Assembly (NCBI GenBank): GCA_034666565.1
Contig: JAXDLN010000091.1
Span: 3,968 to 67,967 of the forward strand
From: Chloroflexota bacterium
Lineage (GTDB): Bacteria > Chloroflexota > Dormibacteria > CF-121
Direction of reading: 5' to 3'
Length of the DNA: 64,000 nt
Shown here: one piece after another, positions 1-18,343 of the stretch
How the letters are laid out: every line of letters begins with the position of its first letter
How positions within the stretch are numbered: the first letter of the stretch is position 1
Made by a program: the position numbers and the translations under genes
Notes under the pieces: generated by a model
The model's database searches: none
What the model saw: the letters and a program-made list of their open reading frames with translations, nothing else
Told to the model about the DNA's origin: nothing

Positions 1-1980
1 GCCGAGTGAGGCGATCCGGTCCTTCATGTTTTGCACGCCTGTGCCCGAGGATGCCGTCGCCGGGTCGAACCCGATGCCGTCGTCGAGGACCGAGAAGATC
101 AGCTCACCGCCCCGCTGTCGCAGATCAACGCGCACCCGCGATGCCTTCGCGTACTTCGTGGCGTTTTGCAACGCCTCCAGGCACGAAAAGTAAATGCCGG
201 CCTCGATTTCGGGATCGTATCGGGCAATCCCATCGGCCGTGACCTCCGCGTGCCGTTGAAGCGCCTCGACGAGCCCGCCTTCTCGAAGCGCGGGCGGATA
301 GATCCCCTGGGCCAGTTCGCGAACCGTTTGCCTGGCTTCTGCTGCCTGGGCTTCGAGCTCCTTTACTGACCGCCGCGCCTTCTCGGGATCGCGCTTTGCC
401 AGCGTTGCGGCGAGGCGCAGCTTCACCGCCAGCGCCACCAGGTGCTGCTGCGCGCCGTCATGGATGTTGCCCTCGAGCCGGCGCCGTTCGGCATCCTGGA
501 CCGCAACGATCCGCTGCCGCGAGGCCCGCAGCTCGACCGATTGCTCCGAAATCTCATCCAGGCGTGCCTGCAAATCCGCCGTCAGGCGGACGTTTCGCAG
601 CACCTGTCCGGCCTGGGCTGCCAGGTCGTTGAGCAGTTTCTCCTCGACCGGCGTGAGTGGCTCGCCTGGCCGCTTCTTGACGGTCAGATCACCGAGCGTC
701 TCGCCCTGATGGCGAACCTCGGCAACCCGGTCGGCGTGGTCGACGCCGAGCGCCGATTCCGACGGGGGCCAGGTGGCGGCCGCGAATGGCTCGCCGGCGC
801 GGCGGATCCAGACGCTAGTCGCGGTCGCTCCCGTCCCCTCCGCCAGCACCTGGGCCAGCCTGCGAAGCACGTCCTCGTTGGCATAAGCCCCCGCCACGCG
901 GTGTGAGAAGGTGGTGAGCGCCTCGTAGGGCGTGGCGCGGTAGCCGTAGACCAACCGGTTGGCCATCGCCTGCACCCGCGTCCGCACCGGTTGAAAGGCC
1001 ACCGCCACCACCGCCGTGGCAAGGATGGACAGCACCAGGTTCGGCCGGCTACCGGAATTGATCAGCGCACCGAGCCCGACGACGATGCCGGTATAGACGG
1101 CCGTGATGAACGCGGCCAGGGCACCGTAGACCAGCGTGCGGTTGATGACGATGTCGATGTCGTAGAGCCGATAGCGCAGCACCGCGATCGCGATGCTGAT
1201 CGGCAAGAGCGGGACGAACAGGACGAGCAGGACGTTGGCCAGCAAGGTGTTGTTGTTCAGCAAGAACGGGAGGGCCGCCAGGACGAGCGCGAACAGGAAC
1301 CAGCGAAGCTGGTGCCGCTGCAGGCTATCGCCGCGACGATAGCGGACGATCACCGAGGATACGGATCCGACCAGCGCCAAGAGGCCGAACGGCACCGACC
1401 GGTCCACGAACGGCTGGAGCGCGTGGGCCAAGGAGGCATTCGCAAGGGGATTGGTGATCGCGGGGTAATCGGGGGACACTTTGCCGACGAGAAACAAGTT
1501 CCCGACCAGGGCCATGATGGCAAAGATCAGACCGCTGATGATCGGGATCATCCAGCGGCGAGAGAGCAGGCGGCCGTCGGGAAAGAGCATCGGCAAGAAG
1601 AGCAGCAGCATCAGGACGAACGGGATCCAGGCCGTACCGGCCAGGACAGCGAAGACTTGCCCGACGAGCAGCGGCGCGTGATGCTCGACGATCGCAAACT
1701 GTGCGTAATTCGCGCTGTTGAATATCAGGTACACGTTCAGGCCAATCCCAAGCAAGAGCCAGCCGACGGCGTTGTGGGGGCGGTTTCTCACCAGGAGCAG
1801 GCCCATCGCGGAAAAAGCCAGGAAGCTGAAGATGCCGATGAGGCTGATGACGGTGGTGATCACGCCGATGGGACCTGGACTGAAGCCGCCCTGATGGAGG
1901 AACAGCCCGCTCACAGACATGGCGACGGTCAGCCCTGAGATGAGGACGGCCCGGATCGGAATGCGGGAGCGTGGTCTCAT
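1..1980 (-). CDS. Membrane sensor histidine kinase, HisKA_3 (NarX/DesK) type; 3' end runs off the window start
   Basis: Absent from the ORF track because it has no stop in the window. Manual translation from ATG at 1980 (TGATG overlap with the upstream gene) showed no stop in the segments checked. It gives TM helices, H-box RLEGNIHDGAQQH (His codon 460-462), N-box LEALQNATKYA and G-boxes DDGIGFDP...GTGVQNMKDRI. Confidence 0.9.
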   Translation of the reverse strand, partial: MRPRSRIPIRAVLISGLTVAMSVSGLFLHQGGFSPGPIGVITTVISLIGIFSFLAFSAMGLLLVRNRPHNAVGWLLLGIGLNVYLIFNSANYAQFAIVEHHAPLLVGQVFAVLAGTAWIPFVLMLLLFLPMLFPDGRLLSRRWMIPIISGLIFAIMALVGNLFLVGKVSPDYPAITNPLANASLAHALQPFVDRSVPFGLLALVGSVSSVIVRYRRGDSLQRHQLRWFLFALVLAALPFLLNNNTLLANVLLVLFVPLLPISIAIAVLRYRLYDIDIVINRTLVYGALAAFITAVYTGIVVGLGALINSGSRPNLVLSILATAVVAVAFQPVRTRVQAMANRLVYGYRATPYEALTTFSHRVAGAYANEDVLRRLAQVLAEGTGATATSVWIRRAGEPFAAATWPPSESALGVDHADRVAEVRHQGETLGDLTVKKRPGEPLTPVEEKLLNDLAAQAGQVLRNVRLTADLQARLDEISEQSVELRASRQRIVAVQDAERRRLEGNIHDGAQQHLVALAVKLRLAATLAKRDPEKARRSVKELEAQAAEARQTVRELAQGIYPPALREGGLVEALQRHAEVTADGIARYDPEIEAGIYFSCLEALQNATKYAKASRVRVDLRQRGGELIFSVLDDGIGFDPATASSGTGVQNMKDRIASLG

Positions 1981-4121
1981 CAGGCGCTCGCCTCGGCGCG
2001 TAGCGGGATTGAGCCGGCAATGCCATCGGCTGATCGCTCGAGCGTCCCACCGACGGCCTGCACGCGATCTTCGATGGCCTGGAGGTCGCTAGTTCCGAAC
2101 CCAGGAGCGCTCACCGCAAAATGCAGGGTCCCGTTGCCACCGGTCACGCTGACGCGGCTCGTCCCGCCGGCATGACGAAGGGATTCAACGCACGCGAAAT
2201 AGACCGCCGCTTCGATTTCGGCGACGTAGCGTGCCACGGAGTCCGACACCACGTCGATCTGAATGAGCGACTTTGCGGCGTGGGCCCGCAGCGCCGGAAC
2301 CAGGCCCTGGTCGCGCAGGAGTGGCGGATAGATGCCGTGCGCCAGGTGGCGGAGCGTATCCAGCGTCACCTGGATCTCGCCCGTCAGCCGTTCGAGTGCC
2401 GCAACAGCCTGCTGGGGGTCCTCGTCGAGGAGCGGCTCGATCGCGCCGAGCTTCGCGGCAAGCGAGGCCAGCTCTTGCTCGGCTCCCCGACGAATGGTTT
2501 CTTCGAGCCGTTGTCGCTCCGTCGTGGCAGCCGTCACCAGCCGCTGGCGCGAAGCGCGGATCGTGTCTGCCTGGGCCGACAACTGAGCCAGGCGGGTCTG
2601 CAATTCAGCCGTGAGCCTGAGGTTGTGCAGAACCAGCCCCGCCTGAGCAGCCAGGTCGTTAAGCAGTCTGGACTCGGCCGCGGCCGTCGAGCCGCCGGCC
2701 GACTTAGCCACCGCGATCTCGCCGACCAGCTGACCGTGATACTTGACCGGGACCCGGTGTTGCAAGGATGCGTCCGGTTGCTCCCGCGGCCACCAGGTAG
2801 CGCGCTGCGAACCGTCCGGAAGCTGGACCGCGACCCGGGCCGCATCGGCGGCGACACCGCGCGCCGCCGCCTCCGCCATTCGCGGCAGCACTTCATCGGG
2901 GGCAAGCGTTTCGGACATCCGCTCCGAGAAGTTGGCCATCACCTCGTAGGGGGTGGCGCGTCTGCCGTACACCAGCCGGTTGGCCAACCGCTGGACTCGC
3001 TCGCGAACAGGTTGAAAGGCGACCGCGACGACGGCGGTCGCGACGATCGAGAGCAGGAGGTTTGGTTGACCTTGCGATCCGATCAGGCTGCCGATCCCAA
3101 CGACGATGCCCACGTACACCGCGGTGATGAATGCAGCCAGCGCTCCGAAGACGACCGTCCGGCTGATGACGATGTCGATGTCGTAGAGCCGGTACTTCAA
3201 GATGGCAACGCCGATCGCCGCCGGGAGCGCCACGCCGAACCCGGCGATAACCAGGAGATTCGAGACGACGTTGCCAATGATCCGGCCTTGTGGGCTCGCC
3301 GGAAGAACGAGGGTCGAGAGCGTGAGCAGGACGTTGAGGACGATTGCGACCCCTAGCGCGTAGACGACCCATCGGATCTGTTGCCTGGTCTCGCCCCGGG
3401 CCCGCCGCAACCGCAGCACCAGAGCGGCAACCCCGAGCAAGACCAGCGGGATAATGCCTAAGAACGTCACCCAGCCGATTGGCCCGGTCTCCAGCCCTTT
3501 GAACATCGTAAGTCCGGTTGGGTTGTGCACCGGGGGTAGGCCCGCTGATTGGATGGGCATCGGATCGATGATCCCGACGACGTTATTGAGTGCCGTCATG
3601 GCGACCAGCGCCCAGAGCAGCCACCCCCAGCGCGGCGAAGGCAACCGGCCGTCGGGAAAGAACAGCATGATCAGCACGACGATTCCCGGGTAGATGAGAC
3701 TGTTGAGCAGCGAGCCTACCCACGCGACCCACTCCACGCCGGGAAACGACCCCGGAACCACGAGTAGGGTATGGACCAGATACTGGGAGAGAAGGGCGGT
3801 CAGCGCATTGACTACGGCCCCCCCCAGCAAGATCCATCCGATGCGGTTGCCGGGCAGCCGCGAGGCGATCAGCCCTCCTACGAAGGCGATCGCGATCGGT
3901 GGTACTACGGCCTGGGCAAACGCGCCGATGAGCTGCGGGTCGCGGAACGCTGACGCGTTGCTGATGGCCAGCCCGATCGCCCCAGCGATGAGCAGGTAGA
4001 TAAGGCCAACCCCACCCCAGGCCAGGCGCGGTCCACGTCGAGCTGTCATGGACGGATGTTCCCGCATCGGGCGCCTCCCGTCGAGGGGGCAGGCCCCAGA
4101 GGCGAGCGTTCGCTTTTTCAC
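1980..4121 (-). CDS. Paralogous membrane sensor histidine-kinase-like protein lacking catalytic residues (probable pseudokinase); start may be ATG 4049
   Basis: Same architecture as the 1-1980 gene (TM region, RYRLYDID-like motif, GAF-like region, HisKA_3, HATPase). The H-box reads RLEETIRRGAEQE, the N-box CVESLRH and the G1 box VSAPG. Confidence 0.85.
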   Translation of the reverse strand: MKKRTLASGACPLDGRRPMREHPSMTARRGPRLAWGGVGLIYLLIAGAIGLAISNASAFRDPQLIGAFAQAVVPPIAIAFVGGLIASRLPGNRIGWILLGGAVVNALTALLSQYLVHTLLVVPGSFPGVEWVAWVGSLLNSLIYPGIVVLIMLFFPDGRLPSPRWGWLLWALVAMTALNNVVGIIDPMPIQSAGLPPVHNPTGLTMFKGLETGPIGWVTFLGIIPLVLLGVAALVLRLRRARGETRQQIRWVVYALGVAIVLNVLLTLSTLVLPASPQGRIIGNVVSNLLVIAGFGVALPAAIGVAILKYRLYDIDIVISRTVVFGALAAFITAVYVGIVVGIGSLIGSQGQPNLLLSIVATAVVAVAFQPVRERVQRLANRLVYGRRATPYEVMANFSERMSETLAPDEVLPRMAEAAARGVAADAARVAVQLPDGSQRATWWPREQPDASLQHRVPVKYHGQLVGEIAVAKSAGGSTAAAESRLLNDLAAQAGLVLHNLRLTAELQTRLAQLSAQADTIRASRQRLVTAATTERQRLEETIRRGAEQELASLAAKLGAIEPLLDEDPQQAVAALERLTGEIQVTLDTLRHLAHGIYPPLLRDQGLVPALRAHAAKSLIQIDVVSDSVARYVAEIEAAVYFACVESLRHAGGTSRVSVTGGNGTLHFAVSAPGFGTSDLQAIEDRVQAVGGTLERSADGIAGSIPLRAEASA

Positions 4122-4150: not shown

Positions 4151-4741
4151 ATGGGGAGGAGTCCGGTTTCGAGTCGCGTGGCGATCTCCTTCGCCGTGGC
4201 CGCCTTCGCCCTCGAGCTGGTGGCGGGCCTGATGTACGCGGCGGCCGCCGGTTTTGCCGGCGGCCTGAGCGTCGACCCATCGAAACTGCTCGGGTCGGGT
4301 CCGACCGGCGCCGCCTTGATCCGGTGGGGCAGCCTGATCGATATGGTCGGCTACCTGTGCCTCGCTCCGGTCGTGGTCTACCTGCGCGCCCGCTTCGCAA
4401 CCGCGAGCTTTACCGACGTCTTTGCGGCGGCCGGCCTGGCGGTTGTCGTGATCGGCTCGATCGGGGCGGCCGCCATGGCGACGGCGGCTCCGCCGTTGAT
4501 CAATGACTTTGCGACGGCGAGTGGCGCCGCCAAGCAGGCCCTCGTGCCGGCGTTCGCGACGCTCTACCGGGCGGTCGTGCTCGGCCTCTGGCAGACGCTA
4601 GAGACGATTCCCTGGGCGGTCTGGCTCCTCGGCAGCGCCTTCGCCGCGAGACGGGAGGGGCCCCGACCGCTGGTGGTGATCCTCGTCGTCGCGGGTGCGC
4701 TCAACGGCGCCATCGCGGTCTACCGCCTGGTCGCCTCTTAG
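4151..4741 (+). CDS. Multi-pass membrane protein (DUF4386-like)
   Basis: 196-aa ORF with about 5 hydrophobic segments, divergent from the kinase pair. Family resemblance is from recall only. Confidence 0.65.
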   Translation: MGRSPVSSRVAISFAVAAFALELVAGLMYAAAAGFAGGLSVDPSKLLGSGPTGAALIRWGSLIDMVGYLCLAPVVVYLRARFATASFTDVFAAAGLAVVVIGSIGAAAMATAAPPLINDFATASGAAKQALVPAFATLYRAVVLGLWQTLETIPWAVWLLGSAFAARREGPRPLVVILVVAGALNGAIAVYRLVAS

Positions 4742-5368: not shown

Positions 5369-6427
5369 TTAGCTCGCCTTGTTGGCGAATTCGTTCGTGT
5401 AGGTCTCGCTCAGGTTCGCGTTCTTGCCCTTGAAGGACGAGACAAAGTTCTGCTCGATGCTCAGGATGGTCTGCGGCCCGGCGGCCGGCATCTTGCAATC
5501 GGTTCCGAAGATCGACAGCTGATTCTGGAGGGCCGCCACGTACAGGTCCTTGCTCGGCACCAGGTAGTCGGCCGGCATCTTGGCGGCGATCTCGGCCGCC
5601 GTATGCGCCTTCATCCACTTCAAAGTCTTGACGTAGACGTTGACCAGCCGCTGGGCCACGTCCTTGTGGCTGTTGACCCAGTCGTTCTTGGCGAAGATGC
5701 CGATGAACGGGTAGTCGCCGCCGAGCGCAGCCTGCGTGGTTGCGGGCGTCCGAAGGTCGATCAGCACCTTGGCATCCCCGCTCTGCAGCAGACGCGTGAT
5801 GGTCGGCTCGGTCGTCATGCCGGCGTCGATCGTCCCGTTTTTGATTGCCGCGATGAAGGTATCACCGGCTCCAACGGCGACGAAAGTAGCATCCGATCCC
5901 TTGTAGCCGGCCTTGCCAAGGAGCGCCAGCGAGATCGTGTGCGTGCCCGAGCCGATGTCGGTAACGCCCAGCTTCTTTCCCTTGAGGTCCGCCGCCGACT
6001 TGATGGAGTCGGCCTTCTTCGTCGCCACCATCTCCGCTTCACCCGGCGCGATGCCGAATTGGCAGATCGTCTCGATCTTCTTTCCCAACGCATTGAGCTC
6101 GATCGGGTGGCTATAGGCGCCTGACCCGGCGTCGACGTTGCCGGCGACGACCTCGAGCTCGGTCCCCTGCCCGGAGCCTTCGTCGATCAGGGTCACGTTG
6201 ATCTTCTCCGCATCGAAGTAGCCGAGCTGCTTGGCCAGCATGTTCGGCAAGTAAATCTGTTTGTTGAGACCGCCGACCATCATCTTTAGGTCGACCGGCT
6301 GGACCGCGGCCGGCGAGCTGCCTGAACCGGCGTTGTTCGCGGTCCCACCGCATGCGGCCAGCGCGATGGCCATCGCCACCGTTCCTCCCACAGCAAAGAA
6401 CGCCCGACGTTTAGATCCGTTTATCAA
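5369..6427 (-). CDS. ABC substrate-binding lipoprotein, NitT/TauT (NMT1/SsuA-like) family
   Basis: Lipobox LAAC, and KQIYLP..LAKQLGYF and DLKGKKLGVT motifs. GGAGGAG SD followed by TTG. Confidence 0.9.
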   Translation of the reverse strand: MINGSKRRAFFAVGGTVAMAIALAACGGTANNAGSGSSPAAVQPVDLKMMVGGLNKQIYLPNMLAKQLGYFDAEKINVTLIDEGSGQGTELEVVAGNVDAGSGAYSHPIELNALGKKIETICQFGIAPGEAEMVATKKADSIKSAADLKGKKLGVTDIGSGTHTISLALLGKAGYKGSDATFVAVGAGDTFIAAIKNGTIDAGMTTEPTITRLLQSGDAKVLIDLRTPATTQAALGGDYPFIGIFAKNDWVNSHKDVAQRLVNVYVKTLKWMKAHTAAEIAAKMPADYLVPSKDLYVAALQNQLSIFGTDCKMPAAGPQTILSIEQNFVSSFKGKNANLSETYTNEFANKAS

Positions 6428-6440
6428 TCGTTTCTCCTCC

Positions 6441-7409
6441 CTAAATCGGTATTTCGCCGCTGACTCGACTGGGTCGCCATTTGATGAGCCGGTTTTCGAG
6501 GGCGCTGATCAGGCCCTCCGCGATCAGCGCGAGGACCGCCAACACGAACATGCCGGCGAACACGCCGTTGACGTCGAAGGTGTGCCCGGCGTTGTAGATC
6601 AGCTGGCCGAGGCCGGCGGTGGCCCCGAAGAGTTCCCCGACCACGGCGCCGACGATGGCCAGCCCGAAGCTAATGTGCAGGCTGGCGAGAATCCACGAAA
6701 GCGCGGACGGGATGATGATCTCGGTCGTGAGGCGGCGGTTGTCGGCGCCCAGGATGCGTGCGTTGGCGATCAGATTGCGATCCACCTCGCGGACGCCCTG
6801 AAAGGCGTTGAAGAAGACCACGAAGAACACGAGCACTACGGCGGTCGCCGCTTTACCCGAGAGCGACAGACCGAACATGATCGCGAAGAGTGAGCCGAGC
6901 ACGACCCTGGGGATGGCGTTCGCGGCTCGGATGAACGGCGAAAGAACCTGGGCGAGCAGGTCGATGCGTCCAAGCAGGATGCCGAAGAAGATGCCCAGGG
7001 CCGAGCCGACGACGAAGCCGAGCACCGCTTCCTCCATCGTGACCGCGGCCTGCAGCCAGAGCGGCCCCAATGCCGTTCCCTCGGTAATCCAGGTCCAGAG
7101 CCGCAGGACGACCCCCGACGGCTGGCCCACGAAGAAGGCGTCGACCCAGTTCAGCCGAGTCGACAACTCCCAACTGCCGAGCCAGACCACCGCAAACAGC
7201 AGGCGGAGCCCATAGACGAGCACGCGCCGGCGGCGCGCTGCGCGCGACCGCCGGGCAAGCAGGTCCGCGTCGATACCCGCGCTCTCCGGCCTGGCACCTA
7301 GCGGGCCGAGCGGCGCCCCATCCTGTCGCCGGGTGTCCGTGCTCGAGAACGGCGGCGCGCCGCCCTGTGCGGACACGTTAGACGGCCGCAGCGTGCTTCT
7401 GACGCTCAT
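6441..7409 (-). CDS. ABC permease, NitT/TauT family
   Basis: TM helices, EAA-like loop VREVDRNLIANARILGA, and GELFGATAGLGQLI. Confidence 0.9.
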   Translation of the reverse strand: MSVRSTLRPSNVSAQGGAPPFSSTDTRRQDGAPLGPLGARPESAGIDADLLARRSRAARRRRVLVYGLRLLFAVVWLGSWELSTRLNWVDAFFVGQPSGVVLRLWTWITEGTALGPLWLQAAVTMEEAVLGFVVGSALGIFFGILLGRIDLLAQVLSPFIRAANAIPRVVLGSLFAIMFGLSLSGKAATAVVLVFFVVFFNAFQGVREVDRNLIANARILGADNRRLTTEIIIPSALSWILASLHISFGLAIVGAVVGELFGATAGLGQLIYNAGHTFDVNGVFAGMFVLAVLALIAEGLISALENRLIKWRPSRVSGEIPI

Positions 7410-8187
7410 AGCTCACCAACACCTCGTCACGTAGCTGGTTCCAGATGGCCTCGTAGATTTGTGTGAAGCGCGGTTGGAAGCGGATCTCGGCGACGTTGCG
7501 GGGCCTCGGCAGGTCGACCTCGAAGGTGCCTTTGACCGTTCCGGGCCCGGCGGTGAGCAGGACCACCCGATCGGCGAGGGCGATCGCCTCTTCGAGGTCG
7601 TGAGTGACGAAAATCACCGAGGCGGAGGTGGATGCCCAAAGGGCCAATAGCTCGTCCTCCATCAAGCTGCGGGTCTGCACGTCGAGAGCTGAAAATGGCT
7701 CGTCCATCAGCAGGATCCGCGGGCCGTTGATCAGGCTCTGGGCCAGACCAACCCGCTTGCGCATGCCACCGGAGAGTTGGTGCGGGTACCGGTCTTCGAA
7801 ACCAGTGAGGCCGACCCGGGCGATCCAGTCCTTCGCCCGGGCTCGGGCATCAGCACCCGAGACGCCGTGATAGCGGGGCCCGGCCGCCACGTTCTCGAGC
7901 ACCGTCTTCCAGGGAAAGACCGCGTCCGTCTGGAAGACGTAGCCGATGCCATCGGTGATGCCCTTGACGGGGCGCCCCTCCACCAGAACCTCGCCAGCAC
8001 TGGCAAGCTCCAGGCCGGAAATCAACGCCAACGTGGTCGATTTGCCGCAGCCTGTCGGCCCGACTACAGCGCAGAATTCCCCGGGGGCGACCTCCATCGT
8101 CAGGTCGTGGAGCGCGGTGTAAATGCCGCCCTTAGGGGTGGCGAACCGCTTGGTGACACCACGTAGCTCGATCGCCGGACTGGCCAT
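7378..8187 (-). CDS. ABC ATP-binding protein, NitT/TauT family (start ATG 8187)
   Basis: Walker A GPTGCGKS, signature LSGGM, Walker B LLMDEPF, H-loop VTHD. Confidence 0.92.
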   Translation of the reverse strand: MASPAIELRGVTKRFATPKGGIYTALHDLTMEVAPGEFCAVVGPTGCGKSTTLALISGLELASAGEVLVEGRPVKGITDGIGYVFQTDAVFPWKTVLENVAAGPRYHGVSGADARARAKDWIARVGLTGFEDRYPHQLSGGMRKRVGLAQSLINGPRILLMDEPFSALDVQTRSLMEDELLALWASTSASVIFVTHDLEEAIALADRVVLLTAGPGTVKGTFEVDLPRPRNVAEIRFQPRFTQIYEAIWNQLRDEVLVSYERQKHAAAV

Positions 8188-8227
8188 TGCCGCAACGGTA
8201 AATGGGCCGGACGGCCGCTGAAAACCC

Positions 8228-8263
8228 TTGCGAAGTTTGCGACCGTTTTGGTCGTTGTGGTCG
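8228..8263. promoter_or_regulatory. Four 9-bp-period imperfect direct repeats between divergent genes; candidate CitB-family binding site
   Basis: TTGCGAAGT TTGCGACCG TTTTGGTCG TTGTGGTCG. Assignment to the adjacent response regulator is inference. Confidence 0.5.
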
Positions 8264-8291
8264 CTTCCTGCGCACGGCGGGACCGGATACG

Positions 8292-9908
8292 ATGAGGTCG
8301 GTGCGCGGTCCACGCCTCAGCCTGGCATCACGGATCCTGGTCTTCCAGCTCGCCATCATCCTGGGCTCGCTGCTAGTAGGCGCCGTAGGTTCGATCGTCG
8401 TCGAGCGGCAGCGGCTTGACCAGCGGTACGAGCAGCAAGCGCTGTCGGTCGCTCAGTCGGTGGCCAGCATGCCATCGGTGCGCGATGGTCTCCTTGACTC
8501 GGATCCCTCCCGGACCCTGCAGCCGCTGGCGGAAGGGTTGCGCAAGGCATCTGGCGCCAGCTTTATCGTCATCGCCGGTCCGGACGGCATTCGATACTCA
8601 CATCCGAACCCCGCCATGATCGGCAAGCCGATCGACGAGGATCCCAGCGCCATCCTCGCGGGCCGGACCTTCGTCGGCATTCAGCGGGGTACGCTTGGCG
8701 TCTCGGCCCGTGGCAAGGCTCCTATCTTCGATGGCACCGGCCGGGTCGTCGGGATCGTCTCGGTTGGATTCCTGGAGCAGCAAGTCTCGCAACAGCTGGC
8801 GGCCGACCTGCCGCAATTGAGTCTGTATGTGCTGGCGGCGGTCGCCCTGGGCGTCATCGGATCCCTGTTGCTGGCCCGCCACCTCAAACGTCAGACGTTC
8901 GGTCTGGAGCCTCCGGAGATCGCGACGCTGCTGGAGCAGCGGGAAGCGAGCCTGCACGGGATCCGCGAAGGAACAATCGCGACGGATAACGACGGACGAA
9001 TCACGCTGATCAACGACGAGGCCCGCCGGCTTCTGCGCCTGTCGAGCGACAGCGTCGGATGGCCACTCACCGACGTCCTCCCACCGGGCCGCGTCCGCGA
9101 CCTGCTGACCGGCGAGGTCACTGGCGCCGACGAGGTCGTCCTCGCCGCCGACCGCGTGCTGGTGGTAAGCCGAATGCCAGTGGTCGTGCGCGGCCGGAAC
9201 ATCGGCTACGTTGCGACATTCCGCGATCGGACCGAGCTCGAGAGCCTGCTGCGCGAGCTGGACAATGCCCGCAGCGTCACGGAGGCCCTGCGCGCGCAGG
9301 CGCACGACTTCTCCAACCGCCTGCACACGATCGCCGGCCTGATCGAGCTGGGGCGCCAGGAGGAGGCGATGCAGATGACAACGGAGTCGTCATCCGTGTC
9401 ACAGGAGCTCACCGAATCCCTGCTGGAGCGCGTCGGCGACCCGGTGCTTGGAGCCCTCTTGCTCGGGAAGTCAGCGGTCGCGTCCGAGCGCGGGATCCAG
9501 TTCCGGCTCTCGCCGGACAGCCGCCTCGACGGCGATGCCGGGCACCCACGCGACTTGATCACGGTCGTGGGCAACCTGATCGACAACGCGCTCGACGCGG
9601 CGGCCACCTCCGCGAACGGTGGCCCGCGTTGGGTCGAAGTCTCGATTCACAAGGCGGACGGCGATGTCGTCATCAAGGTGCACGATTCCGGCCCTGGGAT
9701 CGGTAAGGGTGACCTGGAGCAGATCTTCTCCGAGGGCTATACCACGAAGCTGGCCGGCCCGGGTTCGCGGCGCGGACTCGGCCTCGCTCTCGTAAAGCAA
9801 GTGGCGGCGCGTCGCGGCGGTGAGGTCACGGTGGTTAACCAGGGCGGGGCGTTGTTTACCGTGCGGCTGCCGCTGTCGGCCAAGCCGGTTCCGGTGGCGA
9901 CGGCATGA
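8292..9908 (+). CDS. CitA/DcuS-family sensor histidine kinase (start ATG 8292)
   Basis: sCache-like periplasmic domain (YSHPNP, GTLG.S.RGKAPI), PAS, H-box LRAQAHDFSNRLH, N-box GNLIDNA, DSGPGI, GYTTK, GLGL. Confidence 0.93.
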   Translation: MRSVRGPRLSLASRILVFQLAIILGSLLVGAVGSIVVERQRLDQRYEQQALSVAQSVASMPSVRDGLLDSDPSRTLQPLAEGLRKASGASFIVIAGPDGIRYSHPNPAMIGKPIDEDPSAILAGRTFVGIQRGTLGVSARGKAPIFDGTGRVVGIVSVGFLEQQVSQQLAADLPQLSLYVLAAVALGVIGSLLLARHLKRQTFGLEPPEIATLLEQREASLHGIREGTIATDNDGRITLINDEARRLLRLSSDSVGWPLTDVLPPGRVRDLLTGEVTGADEVVLAADRVLVVSRMPVVVRGRNIGYVATFRDRTELESLLRELDNARSVTEALRAQAHDFSNRLHTIAGLIELGRQEEAMQMTTESSSVSQELTESLLERVGDPVLGALLLGKSAVASERGIQFRLSPDSRLDGDAGHPRDLITVVGNLIDNALDAAATSANGGPRWVEVSIHKADGDVVIKVHDSGPGIGKGDLEQIFSEGYTTKLAGPGSRRGLGLALVKQVAARRGGEVTVVNQGGALFTVRLPLSAKPVPVATA

Positions 9909-10600
9909 TTCGCACCCTGATCGTCGACGACGACTTTCGCGTTGCCTCCTTGCACCGGGCGTACGTCGAGAAGGTGCCGGGCTTTACCGTGGTTGGTGAG
10001 GCGGCGACCGGCGCCGAGGCGCTGCGCCTGGTCAATTCCGCCAAGCCGGACCTCGTCCTGCTGGACATCTATTTACCGGACATCTCGGGGTTGGAGGTGA
10101 TGAGGACGATTCGCGAAGGCGGTGCCTCACGCGTCGACGTGATCGCCATCACCGCCGCCCGCGACGTCGAGAGCCTGCGCGCGGCCATGCACGGCGGCGT
10201 CGTCCATTACCTGATCAAGCCCTTTCGCTTCGCGGCGCTTCACGAGAAGCTGCAGAGCTACGCCACCATGCATCAGCGCCTCAAGCAACTCTCCGAGGCC
10301 GACCAGCACGCGGTCGACACGCTATACAACATCCTCCGACACGGTGGAGCCGAGGAGACCTTGCCAAAGGGGCTTTCACGACCGACGCTCGAGCTCGTCA
10401 CCCGCATCCTGCAGGAGGCGGACGGTGATCTGACGGCGGTGGAGGTGGCCGAGCTTGCCAATCTCAGCAGGGTCACCGCCCGTCGATACGTCGATCACCT
10501 CGTGCAGCTGGGCCGGGTCGAAGTTGTCATGCGTTACGGCTCACCGGGACGCCCGGAACATCTCTACCACCTGGTGGCGCGACCCGCCAGTGTGGGATAG
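9905..10600 (+). CDS. CitB/DcuR-family response regulator
   Basis: REC domain (VDDD, LLDIYLPD, YLIKPF) and C-terminal wHTH SRVTARRY...YG.PGRP. ATGA overlap with the kinase. Confidence 0.93.
   Translation: MIRTLIVDDDFRVASLHRAYVEKVPGFTVVGEAATGAEALRLVNSAKPDLVLLDIYLPDISGLEVMRTIREGGASRVDVIAITAARDVESLRAAMHGGVVHYLIKPFRFAALHEKLQSYATMHQRLKQLSEADQHAVDTLYNILRHGGAEETLPKGLSRPTLELVTRILQEADGDLTAVEVAELANLSRVTARRYVDHLVQLGRVEVVMRYGSPGRPEHLYHLVARPASVG

Positions 10601-15634: not shown

Positions 15635-18343
<2,709 letters not shown>

Follow-up and report, generated by a model that had tools for sequence, protein, structure and literature searches.

Why should a bacterium maintain, immediately upstream of a complete sensor kinase gene, a full-length paralog whose product has neither the phospho-accepting histidine nor a recognizable ATP-binding site? 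The question is raised by the first 4121 positions of a 64,000-nucleotide stretch (the window; G000:C91:3968-67967) of a draft genome (G000; 3.6 Mb, 121 contigs), whose closest public relatives are metagenome-assembled genomes (MAGs) of Candidatus Dormibacterota/Dormibacter. These positions are filled by two long minus-strand open reading frames (ORFs), here called K1 (upstream) and K2 (downstream), which are paralogs aligning end to end with 38% identity over about 680 residues (E 2e-116). The answer that we favor, and that we regard as probable although by no means secured, is that K1 is a functional non-catalytic paralog acting as a heteromer partner that tunes K2. The features on which the discussion is based are the following:

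1980..4067, minus strand: K1, pseudo-histidine kinase, 695 aa from the ATG at 4067, identical to a public 695-aa protein
1980-4121, minus strand: maximal ORF of K1, 713 aa from the first GTG at 4121
4074..4079, minus strand: GGGAGG, putative ribosome-binding site read from the sequence, 6 nt ahead of the K1 ATG
1978..1982, minus strand: TGATG junction, in which base 1980 belongs both to the stop codon of K1 (TGA) and to the start codon of K2 (ATG)
1..1980, minus strand: K2, canonical HisKA_3 sensor kinase, with 660 of its 704 codons inside the window

The real start of K1 is likely the ATG at 4065-4067, because GGGAGG precedes it at 4074-4079; the public gene call likewise gives 695 aa, and the identical protein is found in a public collection on a 1.28-Mb contig. 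Residue numbers of K1 follow the 713-aa numbering. The complete K2 gene (G000:C91 3833-5947; 704 aa) continues 135 nt past the window edge. At the junction (gcc TGATGAgac), the one-base overlap of stop and start points to translational coupling of the two genes. A scan of the locus for promoters and terminators detected no sigma-70-like site and one terminator-like hairpin, located inside K2, which is fewer than in shuffled sequence.

The positions that matter for catalysis are these:

2490..2492, minus strand: Arg544 codon of K1, CGT (CAT in K2), at the site of the phospho-accepting His
460-462, minus strand: His507 codon of K2 (H-box)
163-165, minus strand: Asn606 codon of K2 (N-box)
67-81, minus strand: DxGxG of K2 (G1 box)

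In the H-box of K1 (TIRRGAEQ), Arg544 occupies the position of the phospho-His and is aligned with His507 of K2, the two codons differing by a single transition; when the family profile is aligned to DesK, the K1 Arg column falls on the DesK phospho-His. The N-box reads CVESLRHAG, with His in place of Asn beside a five-residue deletion relative to K2, the G1 box reads VSAPGFG, with SAPGF where K2 has DDGIG, and both the G2 box and the ATP lid are missing from the alignment and from the structural model. In agreement with this, the Pfam match of K1 to HisKA_3 (PF07730) is sub-threshold (23.0 bits vs a cut-off of 24), and no Pfam match to HATPase_c was obtained at E<=1. Judging from these replacements, phosphorylation of K1 should be impossible, Arg having replaced His, and normal ATP binding is impossible because the N, G1, and G2 boxes are gone together with the lid; of the phospho-His and the ATP-binding HATPase_c domain that are expected of a HisKA_3 kinase, K1 has neither. 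K2 has what is expected of this class (DesK/NarX/LiaS), that is, a phospho-His in an HDxxxQ context and a HATPase_c domain with N, G1, and G2 boxes. Its motifs are NIHDGAQQ (H-box, His507), LEALQNATKYA (N-box, Asn606), LDDGIGF (G1), SSGTGVQNM, and PGKGTTV (G2), and its Pfam matches to HisKA_3 (PF07730; 50 bits) and HATPase_c (PF02518; 26.6 bits) are both above the cut-off, accompanied by a weak match to GAF. An earlier reading made from the sequence alone (hereafter, the sequence-only reading) had described a paralogous pair joined by TGATG, with the H-, N-, and G-boxes intact downstream and the phospho-His, the N-box Asn, and DxGxG lost upstream. The analysis bears this description out: every motif string that it quoted is present in the two proteins, the motifs and Pfam scores of K2 agree with it, and the alignments of K1 to K2, to the family, and to DesK confirm the losses and place no His or Asn at the canonical K1 sites.

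The absence of catalytic residues is not accompanied by a loss of structure in the predictions. The domains of K1 can be listed as follows:

3081..4037, minus strand: membrane sensor of the 'A1-type', residues 29-347, with about 10 predicted transmembrane helices (AlphaFold models)
2922..3224, minus strand: the most conserved segment of the family, KYRLYDIDIVISRT...FQPVRERVQRLANRLVYGRRATPYE, comprising the last transmembrane helices and the juxtamembrane region
2682..2909, minus strand: putative cytoplasmic GAF-like domain, residues ~405-480 (profile match, modelled sheet)
2271..2681, minus strand: signalling helix and hairpin resembling the dimerization and histidine phosphotransfer (DHp) domain, residues 481-617 (model, DesK matches, ungapped vs K2)
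1983..2270, minus strand: reduced domain resembling the catalytic and ATP-binding (CA) domain, residues 618-713 (alignment, model, no HATPase_c match)

In the AlphaFold2 single-chain model, built from a 66-sequence alignment (mean predicted local distance difference test, pLDDT, 79.7), a four-strand GAF-like sheet (residues 427-472) is followed by a long signalling helix running into the DHp hairpin (481-594; helices 481-567 and 569-594) and by a lid-less CA-like domain of five strands and two helices (622-706; pLDDT 85-90). The best Foldseek matches of this model are DesK DHp-CA structures (prob 1.00) and the CA domain of VraS; the matches further include RetS and the phosphotransferase ChpT, the CA domain of which is degenerate. 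A phmmer search with the C-terminal 239 aa of K1 against the PDB sequences gave no match at E<=1, and the family profile alone reaches DesK (E 1e-7) and the GAF domains of DevS/DosT (E 8e-5 to 9e-4). The signalling-helix/DHp region is strongly conserved within the K1 orthogroup and has no indels relative to K2. K1 is thus predicted to keep an intact DesK-like DHp and a lid-less CA-like fold; common descent with HisKA_3 kinases is seen in its identity to K2, in the fold matches to DesK, and in the match between the family profile and DesK.

As for the input side, the search of Pfam and NCBIfam with the membrane sensor of K1 returned no family covering it, with a weak LuxN-like match over the last transmembrane helices, and the fold search with its model (pLDDT 78.8) returned just generic helical-bundle matches, such as G-protein-coupled receptors and rhodopsins (E>=0.02; template modelling score <=0.43). 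The segment at 2922-3224 stands apart, since K1 and K2 are 73% identical there vs 15-23% upstream, and many of its columns are invariant in the family; its pattern, with an equivalent in K2, is KYRLYDIDxVIxRT...PNLxLSIxATAxVAVAFQPVRxRVQxxANRLVYGxRATPYE. The same segment has the lowest confidence in the monomer models (pLDDT 40-68), and it may fold solely in a dimer or in the membrane.

If K1 were the remnant of a kinase, its relatives should show it. The kinase family was found in 40 of 41 genomes (40 related genomes were searched), frequently in tandem arrays of up to seven genes, and a motif table of 63 family genes revealed that the combination of Arg at the His position with a dead CA domain is shared by many genomes of the genus and falls into three subgroups: A1, the K1 type (G000, G002, G013, and later G041), A2 (G001, G005, G020, and G024), and B (G002, G014, G017, and G023). 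In a maximum-likelihood tree of 62 sequences, the dead genes form one clade (Shimodaira-Hasegawa-like approximate likelihood ratio test, SH-aLRT, 100), within which the paths between subgroups amount to about 1.6 substitutions per site. The ratio of nonsynonymous to synonymous substitution rates (dN/dS; pairwise Nei-Gojobori) of K1 against its orthologs from G002 and G013, two further members of the genus, is 0.17-0.19 at dS 0.6-0.76, with values of 0.18-0.20 for the sensor, 0.09-0.15 for the GAF-like domain, 0.13-0.19 for the DHp, and 0.25-0.29 for the CA-like domain; in the A2 subgroup it is 0.19-0.20. The values for the C-terminal domains of K2 are 0.08-0.19, so that the DHp and CA-like domains of the dead genes are somewhat relaxed relative to K2, yet clearly constrained. 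The same state is widespread beyond these genomes: among the 120 best homologs in a collection of 5.8 billion proteins, 70 are full-length proteins with Arg and a dead CA domain, 59-86% (K1 type) or 44-49% identical to K1, and every Arg-bearing protein of this set has a dead CA domain. With its catalytic residues lost, its ORF intact, purifying selection acting on it, and a single clade to which it belongs, K1 behaves as a conserved pseudokinase. It is not decaying; it belongs to an old, selected protein family. The earlier suggestion of a full-length gene retained for a non-catalytic role is in agreement with these values and with the more than 70 intact protein clusters from Dormibacterota metagenomes in which the same losses are seen, and the decay among relatives that would have spoken against that suggestion was looked for and not observed in the dN/dS values or in the 70 intact homologs.

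Five relatives (P0080, P0083, P0087, P0107, and P0115) have kept the His and have a dead CA domain, and one of them (P0080) lies within an array in which canonical and dead genes alternate. A protein of this kind is phosphorylated either by the ATPase domain of a neighbor or not at all, which suggests that heteromers were formed in the history of the clade.

In a set of 273 family ORFs at about 100 loci, each of the 34 His-less genes whose flanks are readable adjoins a same-strand neighbor of the family; this neighbor is canonical in 33 cases, and in the remaining one, it is a His-retaining gene with a dead CA domain. A family neighbor of this kind is found for 152 of the 203 canonical genes. 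Three apparently isolated dead genes were rejected as artefacts, which were due, respectively, to an ORF on the wrong strand, a cut of the locus, and a frameshift in a short contig. Stop and start overlap (ATGA, GTGA, or TTGA) at 15 of 16 additional junctions between family genes of relatives. Hence, the kinase/pseudokinase pair is linked by the TGATG overlap of K1 and K2, by the 34/34 adjacency, and by the overlapping junctions of the relatives. A four-gene alternation, A1(dead)-K2-B(dead)-k, is found in G002, G041, and a metagenome contig (L147), G000 having the first two genes alone, whereas arrays of the A2 type end with a canonical gene and A2, followed by a 229-aa Response_reg+GerE regulator, a flavin adenine dinucleotide (FAD) flavoprotein, and cyclic nucleotide monophosphate (cNMP)-binding proteins. 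One further arrangement was observed at L146 10974-13175 (GCA_030157125.1, JASDBD010000189.1), where an array alternating canonical and dead genes ends with a 573-aa family gene, whose sole HisKA_3 match is weak, and behind it a distinct 154-aa gene with HATPase_c only; the two may represent either a naturally split kinase or a frameshift.

Sensors have been exchanged between the two kinds of genes. The trees of the N-terminal and C-terminal parts conflict, with strong support on both sides, and the detail of the mosaic was obtained from sliding windows and BLAST. The sensor of K1 is 84% identical to that of the G002 A1 gene, and it is 60% identical to the sensor of a canonical G023 kinase whose core is 45% identical to that of K1. 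The core of K2 is 78-84% identical to those of the K2 genes of G002, G041, and L147, while its sensor is 83% identical to that of the L147 K2, 34% identical to those of the G002 and G041 K2, and 52-68% identical to the sensors of dead B genes in relatives. The conflicting trees and these identities indicate that sensor modules have moved between dead and live cores. The switch point lies near residue 300, in the most conserved stretch (KYRLYDIDIV...RLVYGxRATPYE), so that the segment at 2922-3224 appears to be a recombination junction at which the sensor type switches between paralogs. An initial impression that K1 evolves more slowly than K2 (81% vs 61% identity to the G002 orthologs; dN of the K2 sensor 0.70) was dropped, because the K2 sensor of G000 and L147 differs as a module from that of G002, G013, and G041 and the comparison is non-orthologous; against L147, K2 is 83-84% identical throughout.

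A further question concerns the regulator to which the pair might signal. The flanks were expected to contain a NarL-type regulator beyond position 1, an expectation that did not hold: K2 ends 135 nt outside the window, overlapping a convergent flavoprotein gene, and no response regulator adjoins the pair in its flanks. The locus is not a classical two-component operon, since the flanks consist of the convergent FAD flavoprotein gene and a divergent gene for a membrane protein of 187-196 aa. K2 and the flavoprotein gene (583 aa, FAD_binding_2/Succ_DH_flav_C) overlap by 57 nt at their 3' ends (window 1-60; L005 3833-3889). Upstream of K1, the following genes were found:

4151-4741, plus strand: divergent membrane protein, 187-196 aa, without a family match
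5369-10600: NMT1/phosphonate-type importer of the ATP-binding cassette type (binding protein, permease, ATPase), followed by an sCache_3/SPOB_a kinase and a regulator

None of the genes at 4151-4741 and 5369-10600 is conserved beside the K1 ortholog in L147. The kinase and regulator at window 8202-10600 are the two-component genes nearest to K1/K2; as a cognate pair for them they were rejected, the kinase being of the sCache/SPOB_a (CitA/DcuS) type with its own regulator.

In relatives, the arrays end with a Response_reg+GerE gene of 220-247 aa, and these array-linked regulators share 73-83% identity across genera. The flavoprotein and cNMP genes that accompany the A2 arrays also adjoin K2, in a convergent orientation and without the regulator, whereas in L146 and L148, the flavoprotein gene follows the regulator of the array on the same strand, which suggests that an inversion or rearrangement removed the regulator in the G000 lineage. 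G000 has one close ortholog of the array regulator (79-83% identity), at C49 ~17541-18203; the next best match (55-58%) lies beside a paralog on contig C89, which has its own regulator. The region at C49 (G000:C49:16742-21775; L008, L061) contains a 438-aa protein with receiver and helix-turn-helix domains and then a 695-aa family kinase (C49:18200-20287, minus strand); the NarL-type regulator of about 220 aa (~17541-18203, plus strand) is convergent with the latter, the 3' ends of the two genes overlapping, and the regulator module recurs in G024 and G041. K2 and the C49 kinase have the post-His helix HDGAQQHLVAL in common, while the C89 kinase has HDGIQQDLVVL. From these comparisons, the C49 regulator is a likely output of K2, in a layout of many kinases to one regulator.

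Based on these data, we suggest the following sequence of events. K1 and K2 would be made together, in stoichiometric amounts, from one translationally coupled transcript, and K1 would assemble with K2 through the conserved juxtamembrane segment and the DHp helices. Within the heteromer, the membrane and GAF-like sensors of K1 would set the kinase output of K2, which in turn would signal to a NarL-type regulator encoded elsewhere, the product of C49 ~17541-18203 being the best candidate. The direction of the effect would depend on the chemistry of the family: if autophosphorylation occurs in cis, K1:K2 dimers would have half of the kinase activity and be governed by two different sensors, K1 being an activating co-sensor, whereas if it occurs in trans, the heterodimer would be dead, and K1 would be a signal-dependent inhibitory trap. 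Among the roles that the sequence-only reading had listed, that of heterodimer partner or co-receptor fits best, because of the strict adjacency, the coupling, the His-kept/CA-dead relatives, and the sensor swapping, while that of phosphatase has lost ground, the DxxxQ motif being unconserved.

Several observations weigh against a partnership between K1 and K2. As a rule, histidine kinases that are paralogs evolve away from heterodimer formation. Conservation of the juxtamembrane segment extends to singleton members of the family, which implies that it is not an interface specific to heteromers. The adjacency is partly expected, because the family mostly occurs in arrays: 75% of the canonical members also have a family neighbor. 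The dead gene occupies the first position in G000, G002, and G041 and the last one in G005, G020, and G024, and G013 (L045, G013:C119 164-4326) has a K2-type gene upstream of the K1 ortholog, so that the order within the array is not fixed and adjacency alone is. Moreover, each dead subclade has a well-conserved DHp helix following the Arg, a finding that would also fit the binding of a regulator, as in DivL. (A first impression that this docking helix is relaxed in the dead clade was corrected, since it varies between the subclades and is well conserved within each of them.) Finally, two dead copies are split into two ORFs in fragmentary MAGs (G001 and G014), which could reflect assembly errors or sporadic decay.

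The split copies are also what one would cite in support of K1 as a decaying pseudogene that is still open by chance. The chance of this being so is minimal, and the selection and conservation data refute it: dN/dS is 0.17-0.29 in every domain, more than 70 clusters are intact, the subclades are about 1.6 substitutions per site apart, the fold of K1 is predicted confidently, and in these draft MAGs internal stops are about as rare in canonical genes of the family. Nor do we give much credit to K1 as a cryptic enzyme, i.e., a phosphatase acting on the regulator or a protein with an alternative acceptor residue or nucleotide site, which appears very unlikely. In the HisKA_3 class, the phosphatase motif is the DxxxQ that follows the His, as established for NarX, and K1 does retain a Gln five residues past the His position (IRRGAEQ). 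However, among the K1 orthologs, the Asp position of this motif is occupied by Arg, Gln, Asp, His, or Gly and the Gln position by Gln, His, or Ala (Glu or Arg in A2 and B), the DHp of the dead clade contains no further conserved His, and the N, G1, and G2 boxes are all missing along with the lid. On these sequence grounds, a phosphatase role of K1 is unlikely.

Two other readings were considered. K1 might be a pure inhibitor, trapping K2 in dead heterodimers or disrupting the K2 dimer, as RetS does with GacS (PMC8498467); this would be a special case of the heteromer model in which the sensor of K1 merely decides the amount of free K2, and it would hold if autophosphorylation is strictly in trans, because the K1:K2 dimer would then be without a usable combination of His and ATPase. 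The loss of both the His and the ATP site from K1 and the presence of RetS among the fold matches fit this idea, but the His-retaining relatives in which the CA domain is dead suggest that the ancestral pair engaged in productive trans-phosphorylation and not in inhibition, and we consider a purely inhibitory K1 rather unlikely. Alternatively, K1 might form stand-alone homodimers in the manner of DivL (PMC4211667), without contact with K2, the repurposed DHp/CA-like surface binding another protein, such as the phosphorylated NarL-type regulator or a small single-domain receiver, and the signal being reversed or re-routed. In favor of this speak the post-Arg DHp helix, which within each dead subclade is strongly conserved and unlike the canonical HDGAQQxLVA, and the small Response_reg-only genes that adjoin the arrays in L146 and L148. 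It would leave unexplained, however, the pairing with a canonical paralog, the coupling, the alternation of dead and live genes, and the His-kept/CA-dead intermediates, and neither a regulator nor a small receiver gene lies near K1 in G000; it thus seems to us a distinctly unlikely explanation. The partnership with K2 remains the reading that we prefer.

One might go further and speculate, very tentatively and in the knowledge that it is more doubtful than the role proposed for K1 itself, that the dead genes are an old lineage of 'accessory subunits' present in Dormibacterota and Actinomycetota, in which alternating arrays build hard-wired asymmetric heterodimers, exchange sensors through recombination at the conserved juxtamembrane segment, and feed one NarL-type regulator. 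A FastTree phylogeny of the GAF-DHp region places the Arg/dead-CA proteins, the actinobacterial proteins with Arg or Gln for the His and an intact ATPase domain, and a few intermediates in a 40-member clade, the support for which (95) is that of FastTree only; the tree requires a minimum of 7 changes in the state of the His and of 5 in that of the CA domain. In the arrays of Actinomycetota (His-less genes at L069, L072, L088, L098, L107, L115, L118, L121, L124, L129, and L137), Arg, Gln, or Ser stands for the His in proteins with intact N, G1, and G2 boxes. Examples of such sequences are EREIREGVERRL and RDIQEGPERQL, a partial loss opposite to that of the His-kept/CA-dead relatives from Dormibacterota.

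How does this locus compare with known systems? The FasB and FasC proteins of group A Streptococcus (FasBCAX) have been reported to heterodimerize and not to homodimerize (PMC12675982); like K1 and K2, they are encoded by adjacent membrane sensor-kinase-like genes acting with one regulator, and one partner has been proposed to be a pseudokinase with a dispensable ATPase domain (PMC12675982). The two Fas proteins are complementary, FasC keeping a functional His and FasB the kinase domain, whereas K1 lost both and K2 keeps both; furthermore, fasBC adjoins its own regulator, represents another sequence family, and is not organized in arrays. In Corynebacterium glutamicum, the paralogs ChrS and HrrS heterodimerize in two-hybrid assays, and a ChrS with a dead CA domain is functional, performing better than the deletion (PMC9491836). 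They resemble K1 and K2 in being HisKA_3 proteins with NarL-type regulators, while the ChrS frameshift in the CA domain is laboratory-evolved and keeps the His, and the chrS and hrrS genes are not adjacent. DivL of Caulobacter, which binds DivK~P and controls the unlinked kinase CckA, is, like K1, a histidine-kinase-shaped protein without the phospho-His kept for non-catalytic signalling (PMC4211667, PMC5361649); unlike K1, it has Tyr at the site and an ATPase-like domain, is cytoplasmic with PAS domains, and is not part of a tandem paralog pair. In the RetS-GacS multikinase network of Pseudomonas, one sensor-kinase-like protein acts on another kinase through direct contact of the DHp, and not through phosphorylation of a regulator (PMC8498467); unlike K1, RetS, a HisKA-class hybrid kinase, has preserved most of its catalytic motifs, and its gene is not linked to gacS. 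In Streptomyces, the adjacent kinase-type genes of AbrC1/AbrC2/AbrC3 act with one regulator, and both kinases have been described as active (PMC4428217). Side-by-side kinase-type genes feeding one regulator are also represented by HK1/HK2 of M. tuberculosis and CheA3/CheA4 of Rhodobacter; a split or complementary kinase of that kind was rejected for our pair, K2 having the His and a complete CA domain and K1 neither. K1 and K2 differ from these known cases in that both the His and the ATP site are lost, in a large natural clade that includes intermediates, and in that dead and live genes alternate in coupled arrays, with sensor modules exchanged between the two kinds.

Textbooks present histidine kinases as homodimers, and, to our knowledge, natural heteromeric or pseudokinase partners are known from a handful of cases only. 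The locus described here opens up an extensive natural collection, since soil metagenomes contain hundreds of such paired sequences, and with it one can test by what means a dead protomer governs a live one and whether autophosphorylation occurs in cis or in trans. In practical terms, the stakes are modest, and the value of the finding is mechanistic and evolutionary; it bears on sensing in Dormibacterota, a widespread uncultured soil phylum. If the idea of an accessory lineage is correct, these bacteria would possess a combinatorial and evolvable sensor array with a fixed output.

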